A stretch of DNA of 63,625 nt, filler included, from Acidimicrobiia bacterium (GTDB lineage: Bacteria > Actinomycetota > Acidimicrobiia > Spongiisociales > JAHEDJ01): assembly GCA_029210695.1 (NCBI GenBank). It is 3 parts of 3 records of this genome, joined end to end, with 100 filler letters (N's around TTAATTAATTAA, not from the genome) between each part and the next. Parts side by side here need not be neighbours in the genome. Positions count along the whole stretch, not along the records: positions 42,948 to 63,625 come from JARGFH010000061.1; 2 more parts are not named here. The stretch is one strand, 5' to 3'. The position numbers and the translations under genes were made by a program. Below the pieces are notes generated by a model that did no database searches, was not told the DNA's origin, and worked only from the letters and a program-made list of their open reading frames with translations. Below are positions 39,275 through 61,617 of the stretch, piece by piece (position 1 is the stretch's first letter; every line of letters starts with the position of its first letter).

Positions 39275-40909
<1,635 letters not shown>

Positions 40910-41601: not shown

Positions 41602-41640
41602 TCCGCTAGAGACTATCGCGGGCGTACCATGGTGTGCCGC

Positions 41641-42285: not shown

Positions 42286-42326
42286 TGGGTCTTCCACAGC
42301 CGGCGCGTTCGTGATATCTCCATCCC

Positions 42327-42803: not shown

Positions 42804-42847
42804 GGTTGGTTGGCGGCGGGCCAGTCGTGGGTGATGCCGGAGACCAT
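42775..42847. mobile_element. Possible IS end (IS5/IS1182-like) at the contig edge
   Basis: GGCTGCCGAAAAAGT follows CTAG; coding character is lost and the contig ends. Confidence 0.35.
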
Positions 42848-42947
42848 NNNNNNNNNNNNNNNNNNNNNNNNNNNNNNNNNNNNNNNNNNNNTTAATTAAT
42901 TAANNNNNNNNNNNNNNNNNNNNNNNNNNNNNNNNNNNNNNNNNNNN
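42848..42947. other. Artificial contig-joining linker
   Basis: N44-TTAATTAATTAA-N44. Confidence 0.98.
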
Positions 42948-43520
<573 letters not shown>

Positions 43521-44145: not shown

Positions 44146-44151
44146 TATCGG

Positions 44152-44703
44152 TTGGGACCAGCGGCGAGTGGAGACGTGACAATAACTACGAATGAAGATC
44201 AGATCGCGTCGATCCTGTCGGTTGTCCGTCTCGGAGACCTGGACCATCGGGGTTGGTGGCGCTCGCATGGTCTCGATGAAACCGGTTCGTTCCTGCTATC
44301 CCGTTCTTTCAAACGAACTTGGGCGGCGACGGCAATGGAGCTCTCGATGGTGTCCGCTCGAGCCCGTCACGAAGAAGCTCTCGGGCGCAAGGACGCTATT
44401 CATCTCTTCTCCGACGAGATTCCCTTCTACCGGTTGGTCCATTCTTGGCTTCTGGAACAGAAGCTCGAGGACGACCTCACGCCATTCGAACCGTTCCAGA
44501 CCGCCACCACAGACCAGCTCCTCGACCGACTTCCGGACGGGCCACAGGTCGAGCGCCGCGGGTCCGGGTTGTTCCTCGGCACCATCTCCCGATCCGACGT
44601 CGAGGACGCCGACCGTCTCGACGAGGTGCTGGCCGGCCTTATCGGGGCCTACCGCACCATCAACGCCGAGTTCCTTGCCCCCTACTTCGACCTCACCGCA
44701 TGA
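44152..44703 (+). CDS. brxE: BrxE-like BREX protein (alternative GTG start at 44176)
   Basis: RLG.....GWW.S...F.RT......A..RHE..LG...HLF pattern recalled for BrxE; first gene of the operon, ATGA overlap with brxA. Confidence 0.7.
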   Translation: MGPAASGDVTITTNEDQIASILSVVRLGDLDHRGWWRSHGLDETGSFLLSRSFKRTWAATAMELSMVSARARHEEALGRKDAIHLFSDEIPFYRLVHSWLLEQKLEDDLTPFEPFQTATTDQLLDRLPDGPQVERRGSGLFLGTISRSDVEDADRLDEVLAGLIGAYRTINAEFLAPYFDLTA

Positions 44704-45449
44704 CTGAGTTCACCACTCGCATCATCAAAGGTGGGGCGCTTCTCGCCGAGACTCGGCGCCTACTCGAGGTATGGGACGAGTCGGAGCCAACCGATGCCAA
44801 CCTCGACCGCATACGCACCCTGAACCTCCTCGGACTGCCGTCCCGTAAGCGGACCGAGGACACCCTCCAGATACTCCGCCAGCGCTTCGTTGACCCAGCG
44901 CAGCCGCTCCTTTCGACCCTTCGCATGATCAGTCGGGACAGCTCGGCCTTCCGCGATACGTGCTACTTCGAGGCGACCCGAAACGACGACCTTCTCGCTT
45001 TTGTAGCTGAGAATGTCCTGTTCGACTGGTGGGAACAGGGTCGCAGCAGCGTCACCACCGACCAACTTGAGCGCACGCTTCTCGACATCACTCCCGACCC
45101 GGATCTCAAGGCATGGGGTGATGCCACTCGCCGGCGTGTCGTCCATGGCCTCCTGTCGGCTCTTCGTGACTTCGGCGTCTTGAAAGGAAGGGCAAACAAG
45201 CATCTGGCCCCACCACACCTGACCATTGCCGGATTCGCCTACGTCACCGCCCGATTGCGGCACGAGGACGTCGCAGACATACCCACGACCCACGTGTGGC
45301 GGCGATGGCTTCTGGACGAGCATCGCGTCCGCGCACTGTTCCTTGAGGCCGACCGAATAGGACTCCTCCGATACTCCGAAGCGGGCTCGGTCACGCGGCT
45401 CGACTGGATCCACAATGAACTGGAGGAGATCGTCCGTGTCGCTGTCTAG
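44700..45449 (+). CDS. brxA: BrxA (DUF1819-like)
   Basis: FTTRIIKGGALL, N.LG..S..R, W...T..RV...LLS.LRDFG.L.G; position in the operon. Confidence 0.8.
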   Translation: MTEFTTRIIKGGALLAETRRLLEVWDESEPTDANLDRIRTLNLLGLPSRKRTEDTLQILRQRFVDPAQPLLSTLRMISRDSSAFRDTCYFEATRNDDLLAFVAENVLFDWWEQGRSSVTTDQLERTLLDITPDPDLKAWGDATRRRVVHGLLSALRDFGVLKGRANKHLAPPHLTIAGFAYVTARLRHEDVADIPTTHVWRRWLLDEHRVRALFLEADRIGLLRYSEAGSVTRLDWIHNELEEIVRVAV

Positions 45450-46023
45450 GCCGCTTCAGGAGATCCGCGACGACGTCATCCGCTTCGTTGAGCGATCCAA
45501 CACAACCGAAGTTCCACCGTACTTCGTCTATGTGTACGACCCAAAGGACGAGTATCCCGTCCGACGGGATATGGCCGATCTGAAGCTGGCCTTCGAAGCG
45601 AACGACATTCGGTGCGCCTCTATCTCGCTAGCCGACCTCTTCTGGGAGGCCATCGACGCCTCGGGTGATTATGACGCCATCGTGGGTGAGGAGCTTGCCC
45701 GGCCAGATGACCCGAAGGCCCTCGACGACATCCACCAAACCATTAACGAGATCCTCCGAGACGAACCCAGCCTGTCGCAGAGGGTCAGGCAGAGAATGGA
45801 ATCCTTTCCGGCTCGCTCGGTGGCGTTCCTGTATCGCGCAGGAGCTCTGTATCCCGCATACCGAACGTCTTCGCTATTGGAGGATCTTCGGGAACGCCTG
45901 TTGGTCCCGGTGGTGCTCATGTACCCGGGACATGTGGTCGGAGGCGTTGGCCTGAGTTTCATGGGAAAGTGCGAGCCAGCCCACGGCTACCGAGCCAAGA
46001 TCGTGCAGAGGAGTGGCGTGTGA
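45436..46023 (+). CDS. brxB: BrxB (DUF1788-like)
   Basis: YVYDP.DE, GALYP.YRTS.LL, PVVLMYPG, L.FMG, YRA; SD GGAGGAG before GTG 45436. Confidence 0.85.
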   Translation: MSLSRPLQEIRDDVIRFVERSNTTEVPPYFVYVYDPKDEYPVRRDMADLKLAFEANDIRCASISLADLFWEAIDASGDYDAIVGEELARPDDPKALDDIHQTINEILRDEPSLSQRVRQRMESFPARSVAFLYRAGALYPAYRTSSLLEDLRERLLVPVVLMYPGHVVGGVGLSFMGKCEPAHGYRAKIVQRSGV

Positions 46024-49000
46024 TCATCAAGGAGATCTTCAAGAACGACCTGTCCCGGAGGATCAAGGAGGTCATCAAAGTCGACGACCCCGATCTCGGG
46101 ACCGTCGCCGAGGAAATCGAGGACTACTGGGTCACAAACCACATCGAAGGTGAGTTCATCAAGGTCCTCGACGTGTACCAGGACACCATCCTGAACCCGT
46201 CCGAGGAAGTCAACGTCTGGGTCTCGGGGTTCTTCGGGTCAGGCAAGTCATCGTTCGCCAAAGTCCTCGGGTACATCCTCGCCAACCCCACCCTGGGGAC
46301 CAGCACAGCCGCCGAGCTCTTCACTCAACAGCTCAAGGGCGACAGCGTCACAGCGTTGCTGAACACCATCCACGATCGAGCTCCAGCCCTATCGGTTTTC
46401 GTCGACCTTTCAGCGGGAACCCAGGTTCTGAAAGAGGGCGAGAGCATCATCCTCCCGCTCTATCGCGAATTGTTGTCCCTACTCGGCTACTCCCGTGAAC
46501 CACGGCTCGCCGAACTCGAGTTCACGCTGGAGGAGGATGACGATCTCGCGGAGTTCGAACGGCTCTTTGAAGAGGCCAATGATGGGAAGGTATGGAAAGA
46601 CCGCCGTCACCGCGCCCTGGCCGCCAACGAGGCCTCTGCTGCAATGCATCTGCTGCGCCCCACGGTCTACAACCAGCCCGACAGTTGGGCCCGTGGGAGT
46701 CAGCAATACCCGGAACTAACCGCCAATGCGTTCGCTCAACGGGCCCTCGAACTGCTCGAACGCCGTCGTCCCGGATGGAAGCGGGTCGTCTTCATCGTCG
46801 ACGAGGTGGGGCAGTACGTGGCCACCGATGTACATCGCATGCTCGACCTGCAAGGCATCGCCCAGGCGTTCCAGAAGCAAGACGGACGGTTGTGGCTCGT
46901 AGCCACTTCGCAAGAAGCGCTCGAAGAGGTGGTGTCGGCGCTGGGTGGAAAGCGAGTCGAACTCGCCCGGGTCCAGGACAGGTTCCCAATTCGGGTCGAC
47001 CTCGCCACGAGCGATATCGAAGAAGTGGTGAGCCATCGGGTTCTTTCAAAGACCGCCGATGGCAAGGCCGTCGTGAGGAAGATCTACGACGACTACGCCA
47101 ATCAGCTCCTCGCCAACGTGACCCTGGACTCATCGGCACTCGGCCGGGAATTCACCGGTGACGAGTTCGTGCAGTTCTACCCGCTTCTCCCATACCAGAT
47201 CGAGCTGTTCATCCGAGCGGTGTCCGCTCACCGCGCCAGAGGGGGCGCAGGCCCCATGTTCGGAGGTACCAACCGAACCCTCATCCGGCTGGCTCAACAG
47301 CTCATCATCAACCAGCAAACAAACCTGGGCTCTCGTGACGTCGGTGACCTGGCGACAGCGGCCATGGCATACGACCTGCTCGAAGGGATTATCCCGGACG
47401 CCTGGCGATTTGAGATCGACCAGACGACGGAACGCCACGGGACAAAGTCGCTGGCACCAGCAGTAGCCAAAGCGGTGGCCCTCCTGTCGGATGTTCCCCA
47501 AGTCCACCTCCGCCGACCGAATCTCGCGGTCCTCCTCCACCCTGCGGTGGCCGCGGAGTCCCTCGATCCAGAGGTCGGCGACGCCCTTCAGCACCTCACA
47601 GACGACGAGACTCTCCGGGAGACCGACGAGGGATTCCGGCTCCAATCCCCGGAAGAAAAGGACTGGGAAAAGCGGCGGCGATCGCTTGGGCTCAAGACCG
47701 GACAGTTCCGTCGGATCGTGCGGGAGCGACTCGCAGATCTGCTCTCGGGGGTCACTGCCTCGGCGTCCCGCGAATTCAAGCTGGGCCTCCTCTTCGACGA
47801 GGAGCGAATCACCGACGGCGATATTCACGTGCGAATCCTGGAGGGTGGCGCCGACCAGACGGACCGAGCGGTACGACTGTCCCGCGAAACCGCCCACGAA
47901 TCGGACCTGTTCGTGGTGTTCGAGCGGTCAGACAAGACGTGGCGTACCGCCGAAGAGCTGTATCGATCTCGAGAAATGATCAGAGAGACGGAAACCCGCG
48001 CCCGAACGGGCGAAGAAACCGGCTTACTCCACGAAGAACGAAAGCGCGCCGACCGACTCCAACACGATCTCGACCGTGCCCTAGGTGCCGACCTTCTCGA
48101 CGGCCACGTTGTCTTCCAAGGCGTCGAGGAGTCCTTCTCCGGATCTGACATCAGGTCGGCGTTGTCGACTGCTGTTGCCGAGCGGGTGGCGAAGATCTAT
48201 CCGCACCTCAGCGATTGGGCCGCCCCGATCAAACGAACATACGCCCTGTCAATCCTGAAAGATGACGACCTCAGCGGGCTTCCAGCCTCTCTCGGCGAAG
48301 ACGGGCTAGGCATCGTTAGAGCTACGCCGAGCGGGCACGAGATCGCTAAAGACGCTCCGGCAATTGCCGCATTCCTCCAGGAAGTCGATAAGCGGCGCAG
48401 CTACGGCCAAGAGGCATCGGGCCGCTACTTGGAGTCCCATTTCGGTAACCCCCCCTACGGCGGCGACGTAGACATGGTGATGATCGTGGCGGCTGCCGCG
48501 ATGCGGTCTGGGGAGGTCGAGATTACATCTGACGGTGCAAGACTGCGGTCGCACACAGACGCCAGGCTAGAGAAGGTGTTCTCGTCGCTGCCGAAGTTCA
48601 GGTCGGCGGCGTTCCTTCCGCGCGAGGAACGGGTTGATGCCGCCGCCAAGACCAGGGTCGCTCGCCTCTTGGACGAACTGACGGGGGACCGGACCCCAAT
48701 CGCTACCGACCAGCTAGCCCGCGCAATTGTTGAGGGGCTTGCCGCGGATCGTGAGCGGGTTGGCCGGCTTGCGGCCATGCTTCAAGGTGCCGGGCTCCTG
48801 GTACCGGAGAGCATTCAGTCCGCGCATCGGGTTTTGGCACGGTCGACCACCGAAGGCGATGAAGATCGGATCGGCTCGATCGATGGCGCAAGAGCTGATA
48901 TCAAGGACGGGATTCTCGCCGCTCGCAGGCTCGACGATCTCTTCGGGGAGGATGATCGCTTTTCGCTCCTCAGATCTGCCAGGCAAATCGTCTCCTCGCC

Positions 49001-49520
49001 GCCGCTGGAGCTCTCGGAATCCGGTCGAGAGCGTCTCGAAGCGGTGCGGGCGGTACTTAACGCGGCCGACTACGCCGACAGCTTCGCCGACCTGCGAAGC
49101 GCAGTCGAAGGGATCGATGAGGAACAGCGCGAAGCCTGGCAGAGCTCACAGCGGGCGCTTGGAGAGCGTTACGAACAAGCTCGAATCGAGGCAGTTGTTG
49201 TTGTGAGACAGCTCCCCGAGCCAGATCAGGAGGAGCTCCTTCGCCGGCTCGATGATTTCAAGCCACATCCAGACTGGCGTTTCGAGACTGGACCCAGCAT
49301 CGACCGCTTGCGTGCCCTCGCGGCGAGCCTGCCGAACGAGGTTGACAAGATTAGGTGGGAGGCCGGCAGATCGACCGGCGTCGAGGTCATCCAGGCAAGA
49401 GCCCGCCAGCTTTATCCGAACACGGTCACGTCCGAGGAGGAGCTCGACGCTCTGCTCAGCTCCATTCGCGGGGCAGGCGAGTCGGCCCTCGGTGATGGCA
49501 AATACTTCCAACTCTCATGA
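46020..49520 (+). CDS. brxC: BREX P-loop ATPase BrxC
   Basis: R.I.EVIKVD, WVSGFFGSGKS (Walker A), FIVDEVGQY (Walker B), ATSQE, QDRF, YPLLPYQ, PPYG. Confidence 0.92.
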   Translation: MIIKEIFKNDLSRRIKEVIKVDDPDLGTVAEEIEDYWVTNHIEGEFIKVLDVYQDTILNPSEEVNVWVSGFFGSGKSSFAKVLGYILANPTLGTSTAAELFTQQLKGDSVTALLNTIHDRAPALSVFVDLSAGTQVLKEGESIILPLYRELLSLLGYSREPRLAELEFTLEEDDDLAEFERLFEEANDGKVWKDRRHRALAANEASAAMHLLRPTVYNQPDSWARGSQQYPELTANAFAQRALELLERRRPGWKRVVFIVDEVGQYVATDVHRMLDLQGIAQAFQKQDGRLWLVATSQEALEEVVSALGGKRVELARVQDRFPIRVDLATSDIEEVVSHRVLSKTADGKAVVRKIYDDYANQLLANVTLDSSALGREFTGDEFVQFYPLLPYQIELFIRAVSAHRARGGAGPMFGGTNRTLIRLAQQLIINQQTNLGSRDVGDLATAAMAYDLLEGIIPDAWRFEIDQTTERHGTKSLAPAVAKAVALLSDVPQVHLRRPNLAVLLHPAVAAESLDPEVGDALQHLTDDETLRETDEGFRLQSPEEKDWEKRRRSLGLKTGQFRRIVRERLADLLSGVTASASREFKLGLLFDEERITDGDIHVRILEGGADQTDRAVRLSRETAHESDLFVVFERSDKTWRTAEELYRSREMIRETETRARTGEETGLLHEERKRADRLQHDLDRALGADLLDGHVVFQGVEESFSGSDIRSALSTAVAERVAKIYPHLSDWAAPIKRTYALSILKDDDLSGLPASLGEDGLGIVRATPSGHEIAKDAPAIAAFLQEVDKRRSYGQEASGRYLESHFGNPPYGGDVDMVMIVAAAAMRSGEVEITSDGARLRSHTDARLEKVFSSLPKFRSAAFLPREERVDAAAKTRVARLLDELTGDRTPIATDQLARAIVEGLAADRERVGRLAAMLQGAGLLVPESIQSAHRVLARSTTEGDEDRIGSIDGARADIKDGILAARRLDDLFGEDDRFSLLRSARQIVSSPPLELSESGRERLEAVRAVLNAADYADSFADLRSAVEGIDEEQREAWQSSQRALGERYEQARIEAVVVVRQLPEPDQEELLRRLDDFKPHPDWRFETGPSIDRLRALAASLPNEVDKIRWEAGRSTGVEVIQARARQLYPNTVTSEEELDALLSSIRGAGESALGDGKYFQLS

Positions 49521-52500
49521 CGGTCTCAGCTGAACAGCGCTCAGGGTTGGCGCGGGCAGTCTCCCGCCTGAGGAACGTCTTCGAGGAGGACTTCGCCAAC
49601 CTGGCCGAGGGGAAGTTCGGCATCTACCTGTCAGGGCGCCGGGCGGGGGAGGTCGACGCCATCGATGCATTGAGCCTCTCTGCTCACGACGTTGCGGCCC
49701 GAAGCGAGTTAGTCGGCGTGATCGGCTATTTGCTTGGCGAAGGATTGGGTGCGGCCGCGGCAGTGGAGCGAATGCTGCGCGAGGCGGTCTTCACAACGGT
49801 GAACCGCCTATTGGCGATCCGGGTGGCAGAGGCGATCGGGGTGCTTCCCCCGTCGCTGGCCTCCGGTACCACATCGCAGGGGTTCGTGGAGGCCTTGGAG
49901 GGGTTCCCACTGCTTCGTGAGGCTGATGACTCGGGAGGCTATTGGACCTACCTTCAGATCTGCGGCGATGAGCTGTCGCATGCGGTACCAAGGCTCTTCG
50001 ATCGCCGCAATCCCTTATCGTCGCTAGTGCCATCGGCCGATGTACTAGAGAGGGCAGTGACGACTCTATCGGACCCGGACTTGGCCGACATGTGGGTCGA
50101 GCCGGACGCGCTGGGATGGGCGTATCAGTTCTTCAACACCCAAGAGGAGCGAGTCGAGGCCAAAAGCCAAGATCATCCGCATGCTCTGGCTGTTCGAACC
50201 CAGTTCTTCACTCCTGGCTACGTGGTCGACTTCCTAGTTCAGAACACGCTGGGTCGGAGACTCCGCGAGTCCGGATTCGGTATGGAGTTGCCGCTGCTCA
50301 TTGGCGACATACAGACTGGCAACCCCGTCTTGGAGCTAGCGGACGTTGCTGTCTTGGACCCGGCCGTGGGGTCGGCGCATTTCCTTCTTGGCGCGTACGA
50401 GATCTTGGAACGCGCCTGGCGCGAGATGGGTGTTTCTTCCACGGATGCCGCGCCGAAGATCCTTGGGTCTCTATATGGAATCGAGATTGACAATCGGGCG
50501 GCACAGGTCGCCCAGGCCGTGTTGTACTTGAGAGCCCGGCAGTCCGCCCCCGATGGCCGTCTAGATGCTCCAGCCATCGTCACTGCGCGACCACTACCGA
50601 AAGATCCGGCTGTCCGATCATTGGTGATGGCGGACGTATCCTCGGCAGTTCGCGACATCGTTATGGGTCTCGATGCCCTGCTCGAACAAGCCCCTGTGCT
50701 CGGCTCACTCCTCAAGCCAGAGGAGTACCTTCGGAGCGCGATCGGAGAACGTGTGAAGCGGCCTCAGTTGGGAGACGCTGTACCCAAGAGCTATGAAGAG
50801 GCTGAGGCGTCCGTCCTTGAAGCCGTGTCGAGGATCGCTAGCGATTCGGCCTCAACCACGGCTGAGCGGCTGTTCGCCGCAGACGCCCACGATGCTTTGC
50901 GCTTTGCAGAGCTGTGCGCACGCCGATACGACGCGATAGTGATGAATCCGCCATTCGGAGAGTGCCTGTCGGCCGCGACTCGTTGGCTCAAGCAGACATA
51001 TGGCAGTCATGCAACAGAGCTGTATTCCGCCTTTGCGCAGCGAGGTATCGAGCTGGCCAACTCTCATGGTTACGTTGGAACGATCGCGGCTCGTCCGGGG
51101 TTCTTCTTGAAGTCATTCGAGAAGTGGCGATCGGATGTTGTGATACCTCGGCTGGTTGCAGCAGCCGACTTCGGATACGGAGCGGTGGAGGCGGCTGTCG
51201 TCGAGATTACTGCTTTCGTATCAGCTGGCATGGCCGCCGAGCGCACCGCAGCATTCTGGAGACTTCTAAATGAACGCGACAAAGAAGCTGCGATGGGGCA
51301 CCCTGAGAGTGCGGATCTTTTTCGCGTTCACTCGTCCGACTTCTTGAAGATACCCGGCATTCCGCTCGCTTACTGGGTGAGTCCCACGTTGCGAGAACTA
51401 TTTGAACGTCCGCGACTCGGAGACGGCGCCGACGTTCAGCACGGGGCTTCCAGCAAGGACGATTTCCGATTCCTCCGACTTTGGTGGGAAGTCCCGGCGC
51501 GAGCTGTCGGCAAAGAGAATCGATGGGTTCCGTTTGCCAAAGGTGGCGAATACGCTCCCTACTTTGCTGATCTTCATTTGCTTATCGACTGGGAGGATGA
51601 CGCGCGCAGGATCGCGGCTTCGGTCACCTCAAAGTATCCATATCTCAAGGGTGATCCGGAGTGGGTTCTTCACAGGGCCAGTCGCCATTTCGAACCGGGA
51701 CTCACATACACTCGATTCACCACATCGGATTTTGGTCCAAGGGTGCTGCCGGCTGGAGCCGTGTTCTCGGATCAGGGATTCGGGGTGTTCGCGTCAGGCG
51801 GTGGTGAAGCCAACTACGGATTGCTCGGATACCTGAATACAAGGCTCGTTCGGTATCTACTGGATCTGCAGCTCGCGGCGGGTGAGGGTACGCAGGCCGG
51901 AACCCCGGGTCGCAAATACGAGATCAGCAAAGTGCAAGTGCTGCCATACTTCTCTTGTGAGGGGTTGACGAGCAGTGTGCAGTCTTTGGTGCGGTATCAC
52001 CAGAGCGAGTTCCTCGCCGATGAGACCTCTCACCTCTTCCTCTCGCCGCGCGCGCTGGTCAACCTAGGCAAAGATCTGTCAGCGGTGGAGGCCATACAGT
52101 TGGCCTACGGTATCGAGATTGCAACTATGAATGGCCTCGGTCTCGATGAGGCTGCTGTGTCAGATCTCGTGATTGAGCGCGGACTGCATCCGGCGGAGTA
52201 TCCGGCCCGTTCGCCGGGTGAGATGCAGGACCTCCGAACCTTGTGGAAGATGCCCATCGCTCACTTAGCGAGTGAGGCGGTCAAGCGAGCGGGCGGCGCT
52301 CGGCATCTGGCAGTTCAGTCCTATTGGGTCGACCGTAGGCTTGAGCTGCTGTCGCACGTGCTTGAAGCACATCCCGAATCGATAGTCGCTGCGGCCGAAG
52401 AAATGAACCTTCCGGTACGGCCGACAGAGCCGCGGTTGGACATTTCCTACTGTCTTGGGCTGAGCCTCGGTCGGTGGGATCTCCGGCATTGGGATGATGG

Positions 52501-53263
52501 CAGACCCTCAAACGCGCTACCGGATCCGTTCGATCCGTTACCCGTGTGCTCTCCTGGAATGCTGACGGATGATGACGGGTTGCCTTCGCGCACGCAACCA
52601 GAAGGCTATCCGTTGGCGTTACCGCCGGATCGGATACTGGTTGACGACCCTGATCAGGCTTGGGACGTGGTGCACGCCGTCGAGACTGTCGCCGAGATCC
52701 TGTTCCGCGATGCGGATCGCGAACTGAGAAGGGCGATGGAGCCTCTGAAAGCCAGGGATCTGCGGTCCCTGTTCCGGTCGAGGTTCTTCATGGAGCACGT
52801 GACGTTGTATTCGAAGTCGAGGCGAAAGGCACCGATCTATTGGTACCTGTCCGTGCCGTCGAGAGAGTGGGGTCTTTGGGTATATGCGCCTTGGCTGTCG
52901 CGCGAACAGTTGTTCGCCATCGCCCGCCACGCTCAGGACAAGCTTCGCCGGCTCTCGGACGAGGCCGCGCAACTTCGTCGTGACGTCGAGGCCCGGGGCC
53001 GAGATGTCCGGGAGCGCCTTGAGCTAGTGGACGATCTCCATCGGGAGGTGAAGGTGTTCCAGGAGCGAGCGGAAGCCGTGGCACAGTCAGGGTGGGAACC
53101 GGATCTGAACGATGGGATCATTCTCAACGCAGCACCATTGGAGGATCTCTTCGCAGACCCCAAGTGGCGCAAGGACGTTGCCGAACACAGGAAGAAGATG
53201 GAGAAGGGTGAATACCCCTGGGCGACGGTTCAGCGGGACTACTTCGATCGGCTGAAGGCATGA
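49517..53263 (+). CDS. pglX: BREX adenine-specific DNA methyltransferase PglX (BrxX)
   Basis: LGWAYQFF, TQFFTP.YVV, VLDPAVGSAHF (motif I), MNPPF (motif IV), RKAPIYW, PDLNDGIILN. Confidence 0.92.
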   Translation: MTVSAEQRSGLARAVSRLRNVFEEDFANLAEGKFGIYLSGRRAGEVDAIDALSLSAHDVAARSELVGVIGYLLGEGLGAAAAVERMLREAVFTTVNRLLAIRVAEAIGVLPPSLASGTTSQGFVEALEGFPLLREADDSGGYWTYLQICGDELSHAVPRLFDRRNPLSSLVPSADVLERAVTTLSDPDLADMWVEPDALGWAYQFFNTQEERVEAKSQDHPHALAVRTQFFTPGYVVDFLVQNTLGRRLRESGFGMELPLLIGDIQTGNPVLELADVAVLDPAVGSAHFLLGAYEILERAWREMGVSSTDAAPKILGSLYGIEIDNRAAQVAQAVLYLRARQSAPDGRLDAPAIVTARPLPKDPAVRSLVMADVSSAVRDIVMGLDALLEQAPVLGSLLKPEEYLRSAIGERVKRPQLGDAVPKSYEEAEASVLEAVSRIASDSASTTAERLFAADAHDALRFAELCARRYDAIVMNPPFGECLSAATRWLKQTYGSHATELYSAFAQRGIELANSHGYVGTIAARPGFFLKSFEKWRSDVVIPRLVAAADFGYGAVEAAVVEITAFVSAGMAAERTAAFWRLLNERDKEAAMGHPESADLFRVHSSDFLKIPGIPLAYWVSPTLRELFERPRLGDGADVQHGASSKDDFRFLRLWWEVPARAVGKENRWVPFAKGGEYAPYFADLHLLIDWEDDARRIAASVTSKYPYLKGDPEWVLHRASRHFEPGLTYTRFTTSDFGPRVLPAGAVFSDQGFGVFASGGGEANYGLLGYLNTRLVRYLLDLQLAAGEGTQAGTPGRKYEISKVQVLPYFSCEGLTSSVQSLVRYHQSEFLADETSHLFLSPRALVNLGKDLSAVEAIQLAYGIEIATMNGLGLDEAAVSDLVIERGLHPAEYPARSPGEMQDLRTLWKMPIAHLASEAVKRAGGARHLAVQSYWVDRRLELLSHVLEAHPESIVAAAEEMNLPVRPTEPRLDISYCLGLSLGRWDLRHWDDGRPSNALPDPFDPLPVCSPGMLTDDDGLPSRTQPEGYPLALPPDRILVDDPDQAWDVVHAVETVAEILFRDADRELRRAMEPLKARDLRSLFRSRFFMEHVTLYSKSRRKAPIYWYLSVPSREWGLWVYAPWLSREQLFAIARHAQDKLRRLSDEAAQLRRDVEARGRDVRERLELVDDLHREVKVFQERAEAVAQSGWEPDLNDGIILNAAPLEDLFADPKWRKDVAEHRKKMEKGEYPWATVQRDYFDRLKA

Positions 53264-55746
53264 GTGTTCTCCGCAACAACGTGGCCGACAGCCTTGCGAA
53301 GAAAGTCTCGGCTTATGGCGTCGTGGTGTGGGATGACCCGGAGGGTTCCTATGTGGATGAGGCGCCGTCTCTCGTTCGAGAGGATGTCGGGTTCGCGGCG
53401 TACGCAGGCAGCTGGTATCGGCTTCGCCGTGAGATTGAAGACTCCATGGGAGGGTCCGAGCTCCCGCGACTCGTTGTCTACGTTCCTGTCGAACCGCCGG
53501 CCGAGGATCCGTTGGCAGAGGTCCGCGCTGCCACCGGCCTCGATCGGTCATTCAAACTGCTCCTCGGTACTGCCCTCCGACAGTCACTGGAAGGTCAGCT
53601 CACCATCGAGCGGATCGAGGAGGTTGCCCGCTCGGCTCGGACACTGACCGAGGCCGAAGAGATTCTCGAACAGGGCGGTGGGGGGCCAGTCTTGCTCACC
53701 AAGCGCTTTGGCACTGCCGAGCCCGTGGAGATCATGCTTCGTATTGCGTGCAGCGGCGCAGGCGACGTCTTCTCCGATGACGCATTCCGGACCGAGGTTG
53801 ACCGCTTCCTTGAGCAGCAGCTGGGTGGTCAGTTCGGCGGCACTGGGGACCTGGGTACAGCCATCGCTCAACGTCTCGTTGCTGCCGAACTCGTCCGGTC
53901 GGGAGTAGCGACGGGAGCGGCCGCGGCTACTCCGGGCCAGGTCGATCGGGCGATCGAGGTGCTGCGGCGATGGCAGGCAGATCGGCAGCGCTTGTCGGAT
54001 CTTCGGAGTCGCATGGAGGGTGCGCTTGAAGGCCTGGATCTCGATGCCCTCGGGTGGGTACCGGAGCTGGCTCAGCTTGACAGCAGCCCCGCTCTCGATG
54101 AACTCGCTTTAGCGCACTACCTGAATCTGTACACAGCGGGCGACTACGACCAGGCGGCAGCGCTTGCCGCAGTTCGGCGGTCTTCGTTCTGGGCGAAATG
54201 GGACGCGGACTTGCCGTGGCAGTCTCGATGGGAGATCGCCCATGCGGCTTCACAGCTTCAGGCGCTCTGTCTGGACTCAAACGCCACAGGCGCCAAGCCG
54301 GAATCGGTTCTCGCTGACTACGAAGCAACGACATGGCAGGTGGATGCCGAGCATCGTCGTCTTGAGCTTGGCATGACCCGTCTTGATGAGCTGGGTGATT
54401 TGGAGCAACCCATGCAGGCGGCCCGGATTGCCTATGAGGGATGGCTAGATCAGTACCTTCGCTCCTTCACGGCAGGCGTTGCTGCCCGCGGGCTGGCGAA
54501 CGGCTCCCTTCTACGACAAGGCGAGGTGCATGATCGACTCGTCGAGCCGTATGTCCGGAAGGGCAGCCAGGTCGCCTACTTCTTCGTGGATGCCTTGCGG
54601 TACGAGTTGGGTCGTGAGCTCGCCGCCAGTTTGCAGCGCGCCTTCGGGGAGGATGCGGTTCGGGTTGAGGGGGCTCTCGGGGCCGCTCCGTCGATCACGC
54701 TGGTGGGTATGGCCAACCTCTGTCCCAACGCCCACACTGCGCTCCGTCTGGAACTCGATGGTCGTGAGAAGCTCATGGTGTCTATTGACGGGTCTCCTGT
54801 GATGACGCCGCCGGAGCGTCTGTCGCTGCTCCAAGCGGCCCACGGCCACGTGGTCGACATCGTTCTCGACGACCTTGTCACCCAGGGTGAAAGTGACCTC
54901 AAGGAGAGGATCAATGGTGCCAAGGTCGTGATGGTGCGGTCGACCGAGTTCGATGAGGCGGGGGAAGCAGGCAAGCTCGCCGTTGCTCACACTTCGTTTC
55001 CCATCATCGTTGAGCACCTGCGGCGCGCCGTTGCCAAGCTGTCGCTCGCCGGCGTCACCCGCTTCGTCATCTCCTCCGACCATGGGTTTCTGATCCTCAG
55101 CCGGGATGTAGGGCAGCATCGGATCATCCCGAAACCTGGCGGGAAGGGTGAGGTGCACCGTCGGGTCTTCATCGGTACAGGTGGAGCTGCGGGCGACGAA
55201 CTAATCCGAGTGCCCCTTTCGGCGGTCGGCATTCCGGGAGACCTGGACCTACTTGTCCCGCGGGGCCTTGGGCTGATATCGGCAGGCGGCGCCCGTGGGT
55301 TCTTCCACGGGGGCATTTCACCCCAGGAGATGCTCGTGCCGGTGATTACCGTCGAGCTCGAAGCCGCGGCAGGCACCGAACCGCTCACGGTCGAGGTCGC
55401 TATCTCCGGGAAGGTCACCTCGCGTATCTTCACCGGCAAGCTGTTCCTGAAGTCGGGTCTCTTCTCCGTTGAGCCGATAGATGTCAGTGTGAATGCGGTG
55501 CGAATATCAGATGGGGCCGAGATCGCCAAGTTGGTGGCCGCCGGCGGTGCCGAGGTGGCTGAGGGTGTTGTGCGCCTCGCCCCAGACTCGGAGGCATTGG
55601 TGTCGTTCCAGGTCATTGCCGACCTCGACAAGGGGGATAAAGTCGAACTGCGGGTTATGGATGTGAAGACAGACCGGCGCATCGGCCGTTCCAAGCCCGC
55701 ACCTGTGGCTGCTCCGGTATTGGTGGAGGCCGATCTTGACGCTTGA
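53260..55746 (+). CDS. pglZ: BREX PglZ (BrxZ) alkaline-phosphatase-fold protein
   Basis: VVWDDP, VDALRYE, PSIT..GMA.L, SDHGF, HGGISPQEMLVP. Confidence 0.93.
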   Translation: MSVLRNNVADSLAKKVSAYGVVVWDDPEGSYVDEAPSLVREDVGFAAYAGSWYRLRREIEDSMGGSELPRLVVYVPVEPPAEDPLAEVRAATGLDRSFKLLLGTALRQSLEGQLTIERIEEVARSARTLTEAEEILEQGGGGPVLLTKRFGTAEPVEIMLRIACSGAGDVFSDDAFRTEVDRFLEQQLGGQFGGTGDLGTAIAQRLVAAELVRSGVATGAAAATPGQVDRAIEVLRRWQADRQRLSDLRSRMEGALEGLDLDALGWVPELAQLDSSPALDELALAHYLNLYTAGDYDQAAALAAVRRSSFWAKWDADLPWQSRWEIAHAASQLQALCLDSNATGAKPESVLADYEATTWQVDAEHRRLELGMTRLDELGDLEQPMQAARIAYEGWLDQYLRSFTAGVAARGLANGSLLRQGEVHDRLVEPYVRKGSQVAYFFVDALRYELGRELAASLQRAFGEDAVRVEGALGAAPSITLVGMANLCPNAHTALRLELDGREKLMVSIDGSPVMTPPERLSLLQAAHGHVVDIVLDDLVTQGESDLKERINGAKVVMVRSTEFDEAGEAGKLAVAHTSFPIIVEHLRRAVAKLSLAGVTRFVISSDHGFLILSRDVGQHRIIPKPGGKGEVHRRVFIGTGGAAGDELIRVPLSAVGIPGDLDLLVPRGLGLISAGGARGFFHGGISPQEMLVPVITVELEAAAGTEPLTVEVAISGKVTSRIFTGKLFLKSGLFSVEPIDVSVNAVRISDGAEIAKLVAAGGAEVAEGVVRLAPDSEALVSFQVIADLDKGDKVELRVMDVKTDRRIGRSKPAPVAAPVLVEADLDA

Positions 55747-57745
55747 CGCACTTGACTCCAAAGCCAACGAGGCCTTCCCGGGCCGTGTGGTCCGCAAGGA
55801 CCTGGTTCGACGGGTGAAGGTTGGCGCCAATGTGCCCGTCTATGTCCTGGAGTACCTGCTGGGCAAGTACTGCGCCACCGACGATCCGGCTGCTATCGAG
55901 GTGGGCCTCAGCGTCGTAAACCAGACCTTGACCGAGAACTTCGTCTGGCCCGATCAGTCCCAGACCGCACAGGCAGATCTGAAGCGCAAGGGCTCTCACA
56001 GGATCATCGACCGGATCTCGGTGCGATTCGTCGAGACGGAAGGCAAGTTCTGGGCCGAGTTCGCCAACTTTGGCAGCAAATATGTCCACGTACCAGAGGA
56101 CATCGTCTATAAGTACCGGCGTCTCCTGGAAGGTGGGATTTGGGCGCAGGCAGATCTGGTCTACAACGAGACGGAGGACGTCGGCCAGAAGTCCCATCCT
56201 TTCTTTATCGAGTCGCTGAAGCCGATTCAGGTCGCCGCGTTCTCGCAGGAGGAGTATCGCGAGGGTCGCAAGGCGTTTGGCCGTGATGAGTGGGTGGACC
56301 TTCTGGTGCGATCGGTCGGCCTGGAACCTGGGAAGTACGACTTCCGAAAGAAGCTCCTCATCCTCTTGCGGCTTGTCCCCATGGCCGAACGCAATTACAA
56401 CCTCGTGGAGCTTGGACCCCGCGGGACTGGGAAGTCGTTCGTCTACCGAGAGACATCTCCGAACGCCATCCTCATCTCAGGTGGCAAGACGTCGGTTCCA
56501 CAGCTCTTCGTCCATCTTGGAACGGGTCGGCTCGGCCTGGTTGGGCTGTGGGATGTGGTGGCATTCGACGAGGTTGCGGGGATGCAGTTTGGTGACTCCT
56601 CGGTGGTGCAAATGCTCAAGGACTACATGGAGTCTGGGTCGTTCGCACGCGGTAAGGAAGAGCTTCCTGCTGACGCGTCGATAGTGCTGCTTGGGAACAT
56701 TGATCTACCAGCAGAGACACTGGTCAAGACCAGTCACCTCTTCGCGGACCTCCCCAACGCTATGATTGATGCGGCGTTCATCGACCGATTGCACTACTAC
56801 CTCCCGGGCTGGGATGTGCCGAAAATGGAGCCGGATTCCTTCACAAGCCACTACGGGTTTGTGTCGGATTACCTGTCCGAAGCACTGCGAGATTCGAGGC
56901 GTTTCAGCTTCGCCGACGCTGTTGGGCATGAGTTCGCCTTCGGTCCTCATCTGAACGCACGTGATGACCGCGCTGTGCGTAAGACGTTGTCCGGCCTTCT
57001 CAAGATCCTGCATCCCGATGGTGAGTGGACAAGGTCCGAGCTACGCGAATATGTCGAATTCGCGATGGAAGGTCGGCGCCGGGTCAAGGAGCAGCTCAAG
57101 AAGCTGGCGCCTCATGAGTACGCCAAAACGTCGTTCTCCTATGTCGATCGCGATTCGATGATCGAATCGTGGGTCGGAGTCCCCGAGCAGCCAGAGGATG
57201 TTGAGGAGGAGATTGAGGAGCAGGCAGGTCCAGTCGAGCCAGAGGAGGCTCCAACGCCGGGCTCGATGCAGGACCTCATCGCAACCGGCGAGAGCAGGAC
57301 CCTCGAGTTCAAGCGGACGGCTCGCTGGAACGAGTTCATCAAGGACAAGGATCGCGAGCTCGAGCACGCGGTGGTGAAGAGTATCGCTGGGTTCATGAAC
57401 GGCCATGGCGGAACGCTGCTCATCGGAGTCGACGATCTGGGACATCCAACCGGTCTCGACGAGGACCTCAAGGTCACGCCCCGCAAGGACCTCGATGGCT
57501 TTGAGAATTGGCTCACGACTCTTGTCGAGAGCTCCATCGGCGGTGCCGCGACCGCCAACGCCTCCATCGACTTCCCATCGGTCAACGGCACCACGATCTG
57601 CCGCGTGGTTGCCCGCGCAAGTGGATCGCCTGTCTACGTCAAGATGAAAGACGACGACTGGTTCTACGTCCGCCTCGGCAATTCCACCAGAAGACTCAGC
57701 ACCCGCGAGGCGGTCGACTACATCGCCCAAAAGTGGGGAAGCTGA
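55736..57745 (+). CDS. brxL: BrxL-type AAA+ ATPase fused to a C-terminal Schlafen/AlbA_2 domain in place of the Lon-like domain
   Basis: FPGRVVRKDL, NVPVYVLEYLLGKYC, ELGPRGTGKS, VAFDEV, AFIDRLH.Y.PGW, GRRRVKEQL; after an acidic linker: GESRTLEFK, IAGFMN..GGTLLIGVDD, FYVR.GNST. Confidence 0.88.
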   Translation: MTLDALDSKANEAFPGRVVRKDLVRRVKVGANVPVYVLEYLLGKYCATDDPAAIEVGLSVVNQTLTENFVWPDQSQTAQADLKRKGSHRIIDRISVRFVETEGKFWAEFANFGSKYVHVPEDIVYKYRRLLEGGIWAQADLVYNETEDVGQKSHPFFIESLKPIQVAAFSQEEYREGRKAFGRDEWVDLLVRSVGLEPGKYDFRKKLLILLRLVPMAERNYNLVELGPRGTGKSFVYRETSPNAILISGGKTSVPQLFVHLGTGRLGLVGLWDVVAFDEVAGMQFGDSSVVQMLKDYMESGSFARGKEELPADASIVLLGNIDLPAETLVKTSHLFADLPNAMIDAAFIDRLHYYLPGWDVPKMEPDSFTSHYGFVSDYLSEALRDSRRFSFADAVGHEFAFGPHLNARDDRAVRKTLSGLLKILHPDGEWTRSELREYVEFAMEGRRRVKEQLKKLAPHEYAKTSFSYVDRDSMIESWVGVPEQPEDVEEEIEEQAGPVEPEEAPTPGSMQDLIATGESRTLEFKRTARWNEFIKDKDRELEHAVVKSIAGFMNGHGGTLLIGVDDLGHPTGLDEDLKVTPRKDLDGFENWLTTLVESSIGGAATANASIDFPSVNGTTICRVVARASGSPVYVKMKDDDWFYVRLGNSTRRLSTREAVDYIAQKWGS

Positions 57746-57759
57746 TTCTCGGCGGCGAG

Positions 57760-58287
57760 TCAGACGGGGAGTGACACCGAGGTTGGAAGAGGCTCCGAGA
57801 CTGGAATGTCGAGGAGATCGGCCAGCGACATTGCGGCATACACACTTCTCGGGTGTGGATTGCGCCGGCGATTCCATGGAGGCCGCGCTTGGTCGATGAG
57901 CGTTTCATGCGTGACGTCCTCGGGATCAGCATCCGGCATCGACAGGCAGATGAGCCGAACTCTGCCGCCACCTTGGACGTATCCAAGGATGTCGGAGTTG
58001 ATGCGGAGCGATGTCCATTGCGTCTTGCCGGGTGTTGCCCGCTTGTAGGCGGTGATCCGGCGATAGAGATGGCTGGTCTGGTTGCTGGTGGCCTTCCCGA
58101 CGTAGAGGACTTTGTGGTCGTCGCTCGTCCACAGGTAGATACCCCGAGTAAAGGGTGGACCGCCACCTCGGGCCCACGAGAGCCGGCAGTAGTCCGAGCT
58201 ATTGAGATGGTTGATCACGGGCGTCCCGTCATGCTCGACCTCGATCGAGATTCCGACTTCGACGACTTCTGCTTCCATCGCCTCCAT
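57760..58287 (-). CDS. GIY-YIG-like nuclease domain protein
   Basis: GIYLW...VLYVGKA...L.RRI..Y; E..LI....PPWN. Confidence 0.65.
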   Translation of the reverse strand: MEAMEAEVVEVGISIEVEHDGTPVINHLNSSDYCRLSWARGGGPPFTRGIYLWTSDDHKVLYVGKATSNQTSHLYRRITAYKRATPGKTQWTSLRINSDILGYVQGGGRVRLICLSMPDADPEDVTHETLIDQARPPWNRRRNPHPRSVYAAMSLADLLDIPVSEPLPTSVSLPV

Positions 58288-58344
58288 TCTCGCTGCGAGC
58301 CAACGGCTGGTCTTGATTGAAGCTCGCGAGTCGCCGCGACGTCA

Positions 58345-59106
58345 CTATTGGACTACGGCCCACCCCGACGCGTCAGCCCGCCAGAGGTGGACGCCTTCTC
58401 GATCCTCGGCCGCTACCCACACGACGTCGACGTCGTCCAGCGGAGGTGCTGAATCGGGTAGGGGCCCATCGGTTACTTGAATCCAAGTGGGTGTTGAGTG
58501 GAACTCGATCCAAAGAAACAGGTGGCGTTCGCCGGGTCCACTCGTGATCTTCGCTCGATTCTCACCGACATGATGCGTGACGGCCTCGTTCAGGTGATCG
58601 GCGCCCGTCCAAGTTTGGATGCCGGGCGTGCCGAAGTAGATGTACCCGCCGGGCTCGTCCCGCCTGTAGCCCGACGCGACGCCGTGGTCCCTGAGGGCAC
58701 TCACCTCGGGTCGCTCTTCATCCAAGGAGTCGGGGAAGAGCTCCAGACCGAGCGCATCGATAGCGGCGGTCAGTTCCGCGATGGCGTCAAGATCGAGCTT
58801 CATCGGCACGACACCCTCGATCAGATCCAACTGCCAGGAGAGATCAATGAGGGATGTGTAGAACACCCAGCCTTTGGTCTTCAGCTGCGCCTCTTGTGCT
58901 CTCCAGTCCTGGTTGGTCTCTCGGGTTACTTCGAGGATCCCGTGATGCGATCCTTCCCGCTCGATGCAGAAGTCCGGGCCGCCGCTCCGGTCGGTCTGGA
59001 CGAGCCGGGCGTTGGTGTGTCGGGCAACCAGGACCCGCGCGTCGTGCTCCTCTGGGCTGGGCAGCGAGAGATCAGTTGGAGGGCAGGCGTGTCCCGCGGA
59101 AGTCAT
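58345..59106 (-). CDS. Hypothetical protein, possible PD-(D/E)XK-like nuclease
   Basis: E..A..., GPDF...ILEVT; 7 nt downstream of the preceding gene; family call tentative. Confidence 0.5.
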   Translation of the reverse strand: MTSAGHACPPTDLSLPSPEEHDARVLVARHTNARLVQTDRSGGPDFCIEREGSHHGILEVTRETNQDWRAQEAQLKTKGWVFYTSLIDLSWQLDLIEGVVPMKLDLDAIAELTAAIDALGLELFPDSLDEERPEVSALRDHGVASGYRRDEPGGYIYFGTPGIQTWTGADHLNEAVTHHVGENRAKITSGPGERHLFLWIEFHSTPTWIQVTDGPLPDSAPPLDDVDVVWVAAEDREGVHLWRADASGWAVVQ

Positions 59107-59113
59107 CTTTCCC

Positions 59114-59377
59114 CTACCAGTCGCCGGCTCGAACGCGGGGATCCATGAGGATCCCGTAGATGTACGACGGGGCGGAGAGGTCTTGAACCACGACGGTGTT
59201 CTCGAGCGGTACTCGCTCAAGTGCCTTCTCGATTGCCGTCCGGCTGATCATGCGGTTTGTCGCCTCCAGGTAGATGGTTCGCCCTCGTGCTTCGTAAGTG
59301 AATGGCTTCCCTCGAAGCTGGTGAAACGTGTGCCCCGAATGATTGACGATTCGGCGCCAAACAGCATCAGTATTCAT
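59114..59377 (-). CDS. Small hypothetical protein (87 aa)
   Basis: Globular-looking ORF, GGAG SD, first gene of a three-gene minus-strand cassette. Confidence 0.65.
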   Translation of the reverse strand: MNTDAVWRRIVNHSGHTFHQLRGKPFTYEARGRTIYLEATNRMISRTAIEKALERVPLENTVVVQDLSAPSYIYGILMDPRVRAGDW

Positions 59378-61144: not shown

Positions 61145-61617
61145 CGCTCGACACCCGCGCCGGGTGAGGGGCGGTCGAGCGACCGGCCGGATCTCTGTCG
61201 TTCGTGCAGTGAGGCTTCGAGCAGGGGGGTTTGGCAGGCTCCGCAGCGGCAGGCCCTCGGACTCGGCTGGGTCCAGCCATCGGGCCAGTAGGGGATGGTC
61301 GTGACACAGGACGGGCAGAGGGCGTAGCTGCCGAGGACCGGGATGAGCGTGTACTCGTCGTCGGCGGGGACCTGGGTGTTGCAGAAGTCGCAGATCCACA
61401 GGCCGTTGTCTTGCGGGATGCTGGTGATCACGACCACGCCGTGGCGTTCCATCTCGGCTCGGATGCCCGCTTCGGCGGCGACCCGTCGCCGGTAGGCCTC
61501 GGGGTGGGCGACGGGTCGGATAATGAACCGGAGGTCGTCCCGACAGCGTCCGCACAGACCCTCGGGCGTGAGCTGTGTCTCGTCGTCACAGCTCACGCAG
61601 ACGTCAGGACCGGTCAT
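61141..61617 (-). CDS. Cys-rich putative zinc-binding protein
   Basis: CVSC, CGRC, CDFC, CPSC, CRCGAC; ATGA overlaps with both neighbours. Confidence 0.6.
   Translation of the reverse strand: MTGPDVCVSCDDETQLTPEGLCGRCRDDLRFIIRPVAHPEAYRRRVAAEAGIRAEMERHGVVVITSIPQDNGLWICDFCNTQVPADDEYTLIPVLGSYALCPSCVTTIPYWPDGWTQPSPRACRCGACQTPLLEASLHERQRSGRSLDRPSPGAGVER

Follow-up and report, generated by a model that had tools for sequence, protein, structure and literature searches.

A 63,625-nucleotide stretch of DNA from an Acidimicrobiia bacterium (GenBank assembly GCA_029210695.1; the whole stretch is called the window) contained a type-1 bacteriophage exclusion (BREX) operon whose last gene, brxL, encodes the BrxL core fused to a Schlafen/AlbA_2 domain (BrxL-Slfn). 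The window joins three records with fillers of 100 N's, and its parts are not necessarily neighbours in the genome; positions 42,948–63,625 come from record JARGFH010000061.1. Six genes in the order brxA-brxB-brxC-pglX-pglZ-brxL occupied 44.3–57.7 kb, with brxL at the 3' end. The sequence GGAGG (55725–55729) lay 6 nt upstream of the TTG start of brxL, and the TGA stop codon of pglZ (55744–55746) overlapped the brxL start, as expected if the two genes are translationally coupled. M511, which has GAGGAGG 17 nt upstream, was rejected as an internal start, since this Met was not conserved among relatives.

The 669 codons between 55736 and 57745 were open, and the DNA of the junction (57130–57300) formed one unbroken frame through a linker joining the two parts of the protein. 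Residues 1–485 were the BrxL core that a preliminary description, made from the sequence alone, had recognized: Pfam BrxL_N and BrxL_ATPase were both matched, and Acinetobacter BrxL (PDB 8emc) aligned to residues 6–485 only (52% identity, 3.9e-163). The NCBIfam TIGR02653 and PADLOC BrxL matches ended at about residue 486–488, these profiles (675–698 positions) being matched only up to about position 483–490. TIGR02653 scored 710 bits (cut-off 628) and TIGR02688 573 bits (cut-off 329). Behind the core, Pfam SLFN_AlbA_2 (PF04326) was matched at residues 519–654 (1.3e-12; 48.7 bits, cut-off 25.3), and all three Pfam matches exceeded their curated cut-offs. Searched alone, the tail matched SLFN_AlbA_2 at 8.5e-14 (up to 52.5 bits); the only other Pfam match at E ≤ 10 was a chance match at 0.25, and neither Lon_C (PF05362) nor ChlI was found, as the preliminary description had expected of a tail free of Lon-like sequence. 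Of 16 non-Schlafen BrxL proteins from other genomes, taken as a control, 11 did give a Lon_C match. The Pfam scan also found no MIT_C (PF16565) after the ATPase domain of the window protein. Each BrxL and Schlafen motif quoted in the preliminary description was present in the translation.

The acidic linker between core and tail was variable. Across 72 full-length fusions it was 27–60 amino acids (aa) long (median 36), with a net negative charge in 71 of the 72 (median -7). Mean column identity over these fusions was 0.37 in the linker, 0.81 in the core and 0.64 in the tail. Lon-type BrxL proteins had a short conserved junction leading directly into the Lon-like fold, without an acidic tether.

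The tail (residues 510–669), modeled with AlphaFold2 from a 79-row alignment, took an AlbA_2 alpha+beta fold with one lobe per chain (predicted local distance difference test, pLDDT, 97.1; predicted template modeling score, pTM, 0.92). The comparison with SLFN11 and SLFN13 that had been proposed at the outset was run with this monomer using Foldseek against PDB. It gave 23 matches at E ≤ 1e-3, and among the matches listed all were of AlbA_2/Schlafen/SAMD9 type. They included Corynebacterium DIP2311 (3lmm; 1.9e-6, template modeling (TM) score 0.63), SLFN13, SLFN5, SLFN14, SLFN11, SLFN12 and SAMD9 DNA-binding/tRNase domains. Foldseek probability was 1.00 for 3lmm, 5yd0, 7q3z, 7ksp, 9o0d, 7zep and 7lrd, with TM scores (query) of 0.43–0.63. 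Among viral models, the best matches to the tail were a giant-virus 'divergent AAA' protein and poxvirus Schlafen-like proteins.

The full-length AlphaFold2 monomer (pLDDT 87.4, pTM 0.70) contained two confident modules within one chain, joined by a linker with pLDDT of 65, 54 and 54 for the successive blocks of residues 481–510 and below 50 at residues 501–504. The core of this model aligned with the BrxL chains of 8emc and 8emh over 478–494 columns (TM 0.64–0.69, root-mean-square deviation 2.3–4.2 Å). The best structural match was 8emh_C (TM 0.69, 2.3 Å, 486 columns), and MCM helicases came next.

A profile of 28 tail sequences matched SLFN14 (6e-10), pig SLFN11 (5.1e-9) and rat SLFN13 (3e-7) in PDB, as well as SLFN5, SLFN12, human SLFN11 (3.2e-5) and the bacterial tRNase CbCash (3.8e-5). 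Together with the Pfam match and the predicted fold, these matches bear out the earlier assignment of the tail to Schlafen/AlbA_2. In the profile alignment, E519, E524 and K526 fell on SLFN14 E206, E211 and K213, and the chain of the E211A mutant showed A at the corresponding place. D567 aligned with the second D of SLFN14 GVDD, and 'AGFMN', with the invariant N555, took the position of the SAFAN box. PDB entry titles name E209 (SLFN11) and E211 (SLFN14). Eight tail residues (E519, E524, K526, N555, D567, D577, D587 and R646) were invariant in all 72 full-length fusions, as were the Walker A K233 and the Walker B D278/E279 of the core, which argues that the ATPase and the nuclease site are both under selection. 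The wider tail alignment (79 sequences) showed no variation at E519, E524 and K526 either. The numbering of E519, E524 and D567 in the preliminary description was correct, and its observation that they are intact extends to the whole set. Ex4(E/D)xK is described as the catalytic motif of characterized Schlafens, whose mutation abolishes tRNA cleavage and defense (PMC13056530, PMC13462974). From the intact motif, the tail is predicted to be a catalytically competent Schlafen (AlbA_2) nuclease.

Three of the invariant residues, D577 (57464–57466), D587 (57494–57496) and R646 (57671–57673), were shared by all 79 tail sequences, including the non-BrxL fusions. The D577/D587 stretch had no matching conservation in the SLFN14 alignment.

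The invariant active-site residues bear on the view that the tail is mainly a nucleic-acid-binding or oligomerization module in which catalysis is dispensable, either taking over the ring-to-ring contacts of the Lon-like domain or adding affinity for DNA or RNA. The replaced Lon-like domain is itself reported to be inactive and to make inter-ring contacts, and some AlbA_2 structures are annotated as DNA or RNA binders. Short BrxL forms without a tail exist (loci L020 and L021 of our survey, and type 4 systems), which makes the tail accessory. Invariance of E519, E524, K526 and D567 in 72 of 72 fusions, however, exceeds what binding alone would need, and a floppy, weakly conserved linker is ill suited to hold stacked rings rigidly apart. 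We regard a mainly binding or scaffolding tail as rather improbable.

The tail as query gave 84 matches, 57 of which also carried BrxL_ATPase and were mostly 666–743 aa long. The remaining 27 included nine with GmrSD_N, four with Eco57I-type methylases and two with type I R-subunit domains. The core as query gave 8000 matches at E ≤ 1e-50. Among the best 120 of these (68–97% identical), 118 carried PF04326 and two were short forms (537–544 aa). In species-representative genomes, nine of 36 related loci matched over the full length, all nine in Actinomycetota metagenome-assembled genomes (MAGs); these loci were located by a peptide pattern, a search biased to close relatives that gives no prevalence. 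All seven intact loci among the nine showed the three domains. In six (L002, L003, L005, L006, L007 and L008) the fusion gene followed PglX plus PglZ or BrxC in type-1 BREX operons, and the copies in L001 and L009 were interrupted. BrxL-Slfn is a large clade, widespread in environmental bacteria.

Occurrence of the fusion in many independent contigs shows that it is neither chance nor misassembly. Two genes joined by a misassembly or frameshift, or a decaying pseudogene, might have been suspected from the possible origin of the window in a metagenome bin, from a truncated 16S rRNA gene elsewhere in it and from the broken copies in L001 and L009. Against such an artefact stand the unbroken frame, the confident folding of both modules in one chain, and the recurrence of the architecture in the tail matches, the nearest cores and the intact loci; we consider an artefact extremely improbable. 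The two-gene or misassembly outcome that the preliminary description had named as fatal to its claim was not found. The fusion that it reported is real, yet is no one-off, belonging to a large clade and having arisen more than once.

Within the related loci, no gene 3' of brxL was conserved between those scanned. In four loci an extra ABC-type ATPase of 380–390 aa (AAA_21/AAA_15, OLD/PARIS-like) lay between pglZ and brxL-Slfn; L003 had the same open reading frame (ORF) layout as L002 (Table 1). The window had no such gene. In L005, genes encoding a DUF262 (GmrSD_N) protein and an integrase of the tyrosine type (12036–15161) came right after brxL-Slfn; in other proteins, DUF262 is itself a fusion partner of this Schlafen subfamily. 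In L035, one ORF (10001–12001) joined a BrxL core, cut off at position 238 of the ATPase profile, to a PIG-L deacetylase domain and is probably a disrupted brxL.

Databases name the fusions 'protease Lon-related BREX system protein BrxL' (NCBI) or 'ATP-dependent Lon protease' (JGI), so automatic annotation does conceal the swap, as had been anticipated. The fusions so named at NCBI were from MAGs of Gemmatimonas, Fimbriimonadaceae, Actinomycetes and Actinomycetota. On plasmids, tblastn with the whole protein matched 340 BrxL-bearing records, of which one place covered at least 80% of the query, and tblastn with the tail matched 14 records, none of them in an annotated brxL gene. The best plasmid match of the tail was a 322-aa 'ATP-binding protein' of Actinomyces oris outside a defense context. 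No BrxL-Slfn example was found in these plasmid searches of cultured organisms, in which the one place of at least 80% coverage was not identified.

A quick maximum-likelihood tree was made of 63 BrxL cores (37 chosen fusions plus all usable loci), comprising 44 Slfn-type, 17 Lon-type and two tail-less sequences. The window protein fell in a clade of 38 Slfn-type rows with a Shimodaira-Hasegawa approximate likelihood ratio test (SH-aLRT) support of 99. The other six Slfn-type rows fell elsewhere, one of them (P0044) inside a Lon-type clade. An approximately unbiased (AU) test rejected the placement of all Slfn-type rows in one clade (delta lnL 310, p = 0.0027). Among the best 120 core relatives of P0044, four carried PF04326 and one a protein kinase domain; the remainder were mostly 679–686 aa long, about half (58) were annotated with Lon_C, and two of the unannotated ones scored slightly below the Lon_C cut-off. 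P0044 (Schlafen tail) and P0332 (Lon_C tail) were 83% identical without a gap over residues 1–494 and unrelated thereafter. From this clean junction and the AU test, the Lon-like tail was replaced by Schlafen at least twice.

Replacement, the term used in the preliminary description, fits the pair P0044 and P0332 but not every case. P0059 (873 aa) carried BrxL, then MIT_C (phospholipase D (PLD)-like, residues 547–687) and then Schlafen (719–858), and P0213, a 366-aa fragment, carried Lon_C followed by Schlafen; besides taking the place of another tail domain, the module can thus be added behind one. The Schlafen-domain tree was poorly resolved and does not separate exchange of the module between brxL genes from independent capture. 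The C-terminal forms met among BrxL homologues, a survey of which had been suggested, were Slfn, Lon_C, MIT_C with Slfn, kinase and tail-less. The kinase form, P0424 (812 aa), had a BrxL core 72% identical to that of P0044 and, C-terminally (residues 532–751), a Ser/Thr protein kinase domain. This predicted kinase adds to the range of domains that fill the C-terminal slot of BrxL and was not mentioned in the BREX texts covered.

Relatives of the tail among 50%-identity representatives numbered 5767 at E ≤ 1e-3 and 89 at E ≤ 1e-30. From the top 150, 57 were scanned (all those of at least 350 aa plus six shorter ones), and each of the 57 carried PF04326. Their partner domains were GmrSD_N (five), Eco57I-type methylase (four), BrxL (four, two of them fragments), type I HsdR (two), STAND NTPases (two), T1RH-like_C (one), caspase, trypsin-like protease, TIR, cNMP-binding and Lon_C. 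With this range of partners, the Schlafen module is predicted to be a mobile defense-effector module.

The coordinates of the BREX locus and its surroundings are collected in Table 1.

Table 1. Genes, domains and residues of the BREX locus and its flanks (window positions), with the extra ATPase gene of three related loci (positions of the named locus).
Feature	Position	Strand	Basis or remark
NUDIX	within 41629-43473		Left flank of operon
AbiEi_4 helix-turn-helix protein	42327-42803		Left flank of operon
Integrase-core fragment, 166 aa	42973-43473		Left flank of operon
brxA	44319..45449	+	Pfam BrxA 1e-19; PADLOC BrxA 7.7e-19; BrxA domain at ORF residues 130-308
brxB	45415..46023	+	Pfam BrxB 3.2e-18; PADLOC BrxB 1e-29
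brxC, P-loop ATPase	45969..49520	+	NCBIfam BREX_BrxC 3.9e-195, above cut-off; PADLOC BrxC 8.7e-188
pglX, N6-adenine DNA methyltransferase	49517..53263	+	Pfam Eco57I/MmeI_Mtase; PADLOC PglX 1.9e-192
pglZ	53260..55746	+	Pfam PglZ 3.2e-12; PADLOC PglZ 3.7e-80
brxL-Slfn fusion gene	55736..57745	+	669 aa plus stop; TTG start
BrxL_N domain, residues 12-143	55769..56164	+	Pfam PF20442 1.9e-42
BrxL AAA+ (MCM-like) ATPase domain, residues 156-468	56201..57139	+	Pfam PF13337 8.2e-128
Acidic variable linker, residues 486-517	57191..57286	+	Low AlphaFold2 pLDDT; low column identity
Schlafen/AlbA_2 domain, residues 518-669	57287..57742	+	Pfam PF04326; fold; profile matches
Putative metal-dependent nuclease site	E519 57290-57292; E524 57305-57307; K526 57311-57313; D567 57434-57436	+	Homology; invariance
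TraG/VirD4 coupling protein	59462-61555	-	Right flank
M23 peptidase/SLT protein (hydrolase)	61945-63453	-	Right flank
Extra ABC-type ATPase, L002	8136-9302		Between pglZ and brxL-Slfn
Extra ABC-type ATPase, L006	8173-9315		Between pglZ and brxL-Slfn
Extra ABC-type ATPase, L007	3911-5071		Between pglZ and brxL-Slfn

Within the operon, the true start of brxA is probably further downstream than 44319, and PglX scored slightly below the 500-bit cut-off of NCBIfam BREX_1_MTaseX (3.1e-141, 472.5 bits). A scan for terminators and promoters 3' of brxL was empty. The housekeeping run of the window ended with groEL (39275–40909), and the BREX operon sits within the island that adjoins it. No tRNA gene marked the island boundary; a search for boundary repeats was not made. 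Megablast of 44000–58500 against plasmids gave zero matches. The flanking genes resemble the remains of an integrative conjugative element. The operon-flanking ORFs 57760–58287 (-), 58345–59220 (-) and 43531–44268 had absent or weak family matches, that of 57760–58287 being a weak one to GIY-YIG (0.0026), and none of the three was kept beside brxL-Slfn in the other loci scanned.

Elsewhere in the window, a partial 16S rRNA gene (20457–21646, +) was matched in two Rfam pieces (model positions 9–873 and 946–1215 of 1533). Its 3' part (about 320 nt) was missing, no 23S, 5S or tRNA gene followed, and GC fell to 0.547; the feature, distant from the BREX locus, represents a truncated rRNA gene or else a join made in assembly. 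An FMN riboswitch (4490–4608, +) ahead of ribD (4651–5700) and a glmS ribozyme (27423–27574, +) ahead of glmS (27568–29487) were ordinary.

BrxL-Slfn shares the N-terminal domain, the MCM-like AAA+ core and the last place in the operon, after brxA-brxB-brxC-pglX-pglZ, with canonical type-1 BrxL, as described for the Acinetobacter protein (8EMC/8EMH; Shen et al., 2023; PMC10164562). The canonical Lon-like tail is reported to make ring-to-ring contacts (PMC10164562), whereas the window protein has an acidic tether and a Schlafen domain instead. BrxL tails are known to vary, being an inactive LonP, an HKD nuclease or, in type 4, none (PMC12839542). The HKD/MIT_C variant, found in 1030 of 2913 BrxL-bearing taxa (PMC12839542), follows the same principle, in that a predicted nuclease has taken the place of an inactive Lon-like tail and gives BREX a second effector within BrxL (PMC12839542, PMC12065111). 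That nuclease is a predicted DNase of PLD type, whereas the window variant is a predicted Schlafen RNase, with another fold and probably another substrate.

The prokaryotic Schlafen (pSlfn) proteins RorSlfn5 and EcoSlfn7, the latter a DUF262-Slfn fusion, are likewise described as single-lobe Schlafens with Ex4(E/D)xK and a putative sensor, encoded in defense islands (PMC13056530). DUF262/GmrSD_N fusions were among the nearest relatives of the window Schlafen domain, whose partner, unlike those of the pSlfn proteins, is a core BREX subunit. CbCash (Csx15-Schlafen; 9YLU/9YLV/9YLX; PMC13462974) and RzAgo (SLFN-pAgo; bioRxiv 10.64898/2026.05.29.728809) are reported Schlafen tRNases that stay inactive in one oligomeric state and become active by a rearrangement in which the Schlafen domains are paired or exposed. 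Their sensors are a cyclic tetra-adenylate (cA4)-binding Csx15 and a guide-loaded Argonaute plus a GHKL ATPase, respectively; a ring-forming AAA+ protein has not been described as a partner. Stand-alone Schlafen-HisKinase-winged helix-turn-helix (wHTH) genes, reported beside BREX loci in at least 1017 taxa, embody the same notion, a Schlafen RNase serving BREX as back-up effector (PMC12839542). These are separate genes with a GHKL ATPase of their own, whereas the window Schlafen is joined to BrxL in a single chain; the window ORFs scanned included no accessory gene of this kind. Human SLFN11 (7ZEL) also combines a Schlafen nuclease and a DNA-binding P-loop NTPase in one chain, and its catalytic motif aligns with that of the tail. 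Its domain order is reversed, its Schlafen core is two-lobed, and its NTPase is helicase-like rather than an MCM-like ring, and the resemblance is one of logic, not of descent.

These comparisons suggest a mechanism in which assembly or loading of the BrxL ring on foreign DNA would pair the Schlafen lobes, so that RNA, probably tRNA, is cut as a back-up or abortive arm of BREX. We judge this mechanism to have about an even chance of being correct. The AAA+ ring would be the DNA-engaging part of BREX, presumably needed in restriction and not in methylation, and would act as both sensor and switch. As the ring assembles or loads with ATP on unmodified (phage) DNA, the tethered single-lobe Schlafen domains would come together in pairs, giving the two-lobed form on which the activity of other prokaryotic Schlafens depends. 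The paired domains would then cut RNA, most likely tRNA, and this translation shut-off arm would be added to methylation-based exclusion.

Several published properties are consistent with these steps. Canonical BrxL is described as an ATP-dependent DNA-binding double ring with its C-terminal domains at the equator and DNA bound inside the ring (PMC10164562), so a domain placed where the rings meet can report their assembly. BrxL is reportedly required for restriction in several systems. RorSlfn5, CbCash and SLFN-pAgo are described as phage- or signal-activated tRNases that lose function when Ex4(E/D)xK is mutated, and a DUF262-Slfn fusion is reported to protect against T7. The tRNases RorSlfn5, CbCash and RzAgo are released by a sensor-driven change in oligomeric state; RorSlfn5 itself purifies as a hexamer (PMC13056530). 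Single-lobe prokaryotic Schlafen domains are reported to pair in order to rebuild a bilobal nuclease (PMC13462974; bioRxiv 10.64898/2026.05.29.728809). In RzAgo the ATPase domain drives this assembly, and ATP-driven pairing of two single-lobe domains yields a mammalian-like bilobal nuclease (bioRxiv 10.64898/2026.05.29.728809). For SLFN11, the NTPase domain's binding to single-stranded DNA (ssDNA) is described as activating the tRNase (PMC13056530).

Other observations weigh against RNA cleavage by paired lobes. The Schlafen subfamily is otherwise fused mostly to DNA-directed modules (GmrSD_N, Eco57I-type methylases, HsdR and T1RH-like_C), and the parallel HKD/MIT_C variant of BrxL carries a predicted DNase (PMC12839542, PMC12065111), so that the substrate could be DNA or a DNA-RNA hybrid. 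The AlbA_2 structures 7ksp, 7q3z and 6rr9 are described as DNA binders, and since the replaced Lon-like domain is structural and inactive, the role of the tail could be mainly structural too. The predicted clustering of E519, E524 and D567 in three dimensions rests on homology, and no conserved neighboring gene for an inhibitor or immunity protein was found among the loci whose flanks were scanned.

The first of these points leads to a different use of the nuclease, in which the Schlafen tail would act at the BrxL ring on the nucleic acid of the invader (ssDNA, nicked or unwound DNA, or R-loops) as a direct restriction effector, akin to the HKD/MIT_C tail and not to an abortive tRNase. A predicted DNase does occupy the C-terminal slot of BrxL elsewhere, and P0059 has MIT_C and Slfn together. 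The non-BrxL partners of the tail (GmrSD_N, Eco57I-type methylases and type I R-subunit domains) and the reported binding of DNA inside the canonical ring point the same way. The prokaryotic Schlafens characterized in the papers covered, however, cut tRNA, with RorSlfn5 reported to be inactive on DNA, and in the model the long flexible tether would place the Schlafen domain outside the DNA channel. Direct attack on the invader is, in our assessment, unlikely, though less so than a tail without need of catalysis.

A broader proposal, which we put forward tentatively and consider less likely than not, is that BrxL would be the trigger of BREX and not its executioner. ATP-driven ring assembly on unmethylated DNA would be a signal wired more than once in evolution to exchangeable outputs, the C-terminal slot being filled by a Lon-like scaffold without activity, by a DNase of PLD type, by a Schlafen RNase or by a protein kinase. 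In the BrxL-Slfn clade, loading of the ring would pair the tethered lobes and release tRNA cleavage, an abortive arm built into BREX. The acidic tether, whose composition is conserved, might then mimic nucleic acid and hold the nuclease, or the DNA pore, closed before the ring is loaded.

Full-text literature searches for BrxL or BREX with a Schlafen, AlbA_2 or RNase fusion returned no description in the text that they covered. The BrxL section and the searched passages of the BREX survey name no BrxL-Schlafen fusion, its supplement not being covered (PMC12839542), and neither do the searched passages of PMC12065111. The pSlfn paper lists 55 architectures and counts brxL 63 times among neighboring defense genes, and its domain-architecture table contains no occurrence of 'BrxL' or 'PF13337' (PMC13056530). 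In the Cash paper, a cluster of Schlafens that carry an ATPase (cluster 2) is linked to BREX, and the table there holds one 691-aa Schlafen protein with BREX_I as the nearest system, plausibly a BrxL-Schlafen fusion although not named as one (PMC13462974). Among the proteins collected here, a 9-residue motif of this protein matched only an unrelated 211-aa fragment. BrxL-Slfn is real and widespread, joins two known themes (variable BrxL tails and sensor-fused Schlafen tRNases), and is apparently undescribed.

How BREX arrests a phage after recognizing unmethylated DNA is an open question in the field, and BrxL, its least understood core subunit, is needed for restriction in several systems although its Lon-like tail is inactive. 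A large clade with a conserved-site nuclease tail, gained more than once, argues that the BrxL C-terminus is an effector slot and that the BrxL ATPase cycle controls an output. The clade also links BREX to the Schlafen tRNase immunity common to bacteria and mammals. A BREX subtype that is common in environmental Actinomycetota and occurs in other phyla has been missed by annotation pipelines and by defense catalogues drawn mostly from cultured genomes. RNA cleavage offers an experimentally tractable read-out for BrxL activation. If the proposal of BrxL as trigger is true, tRNA cleavage would read out directly when BREX recognizes foreign DNA.

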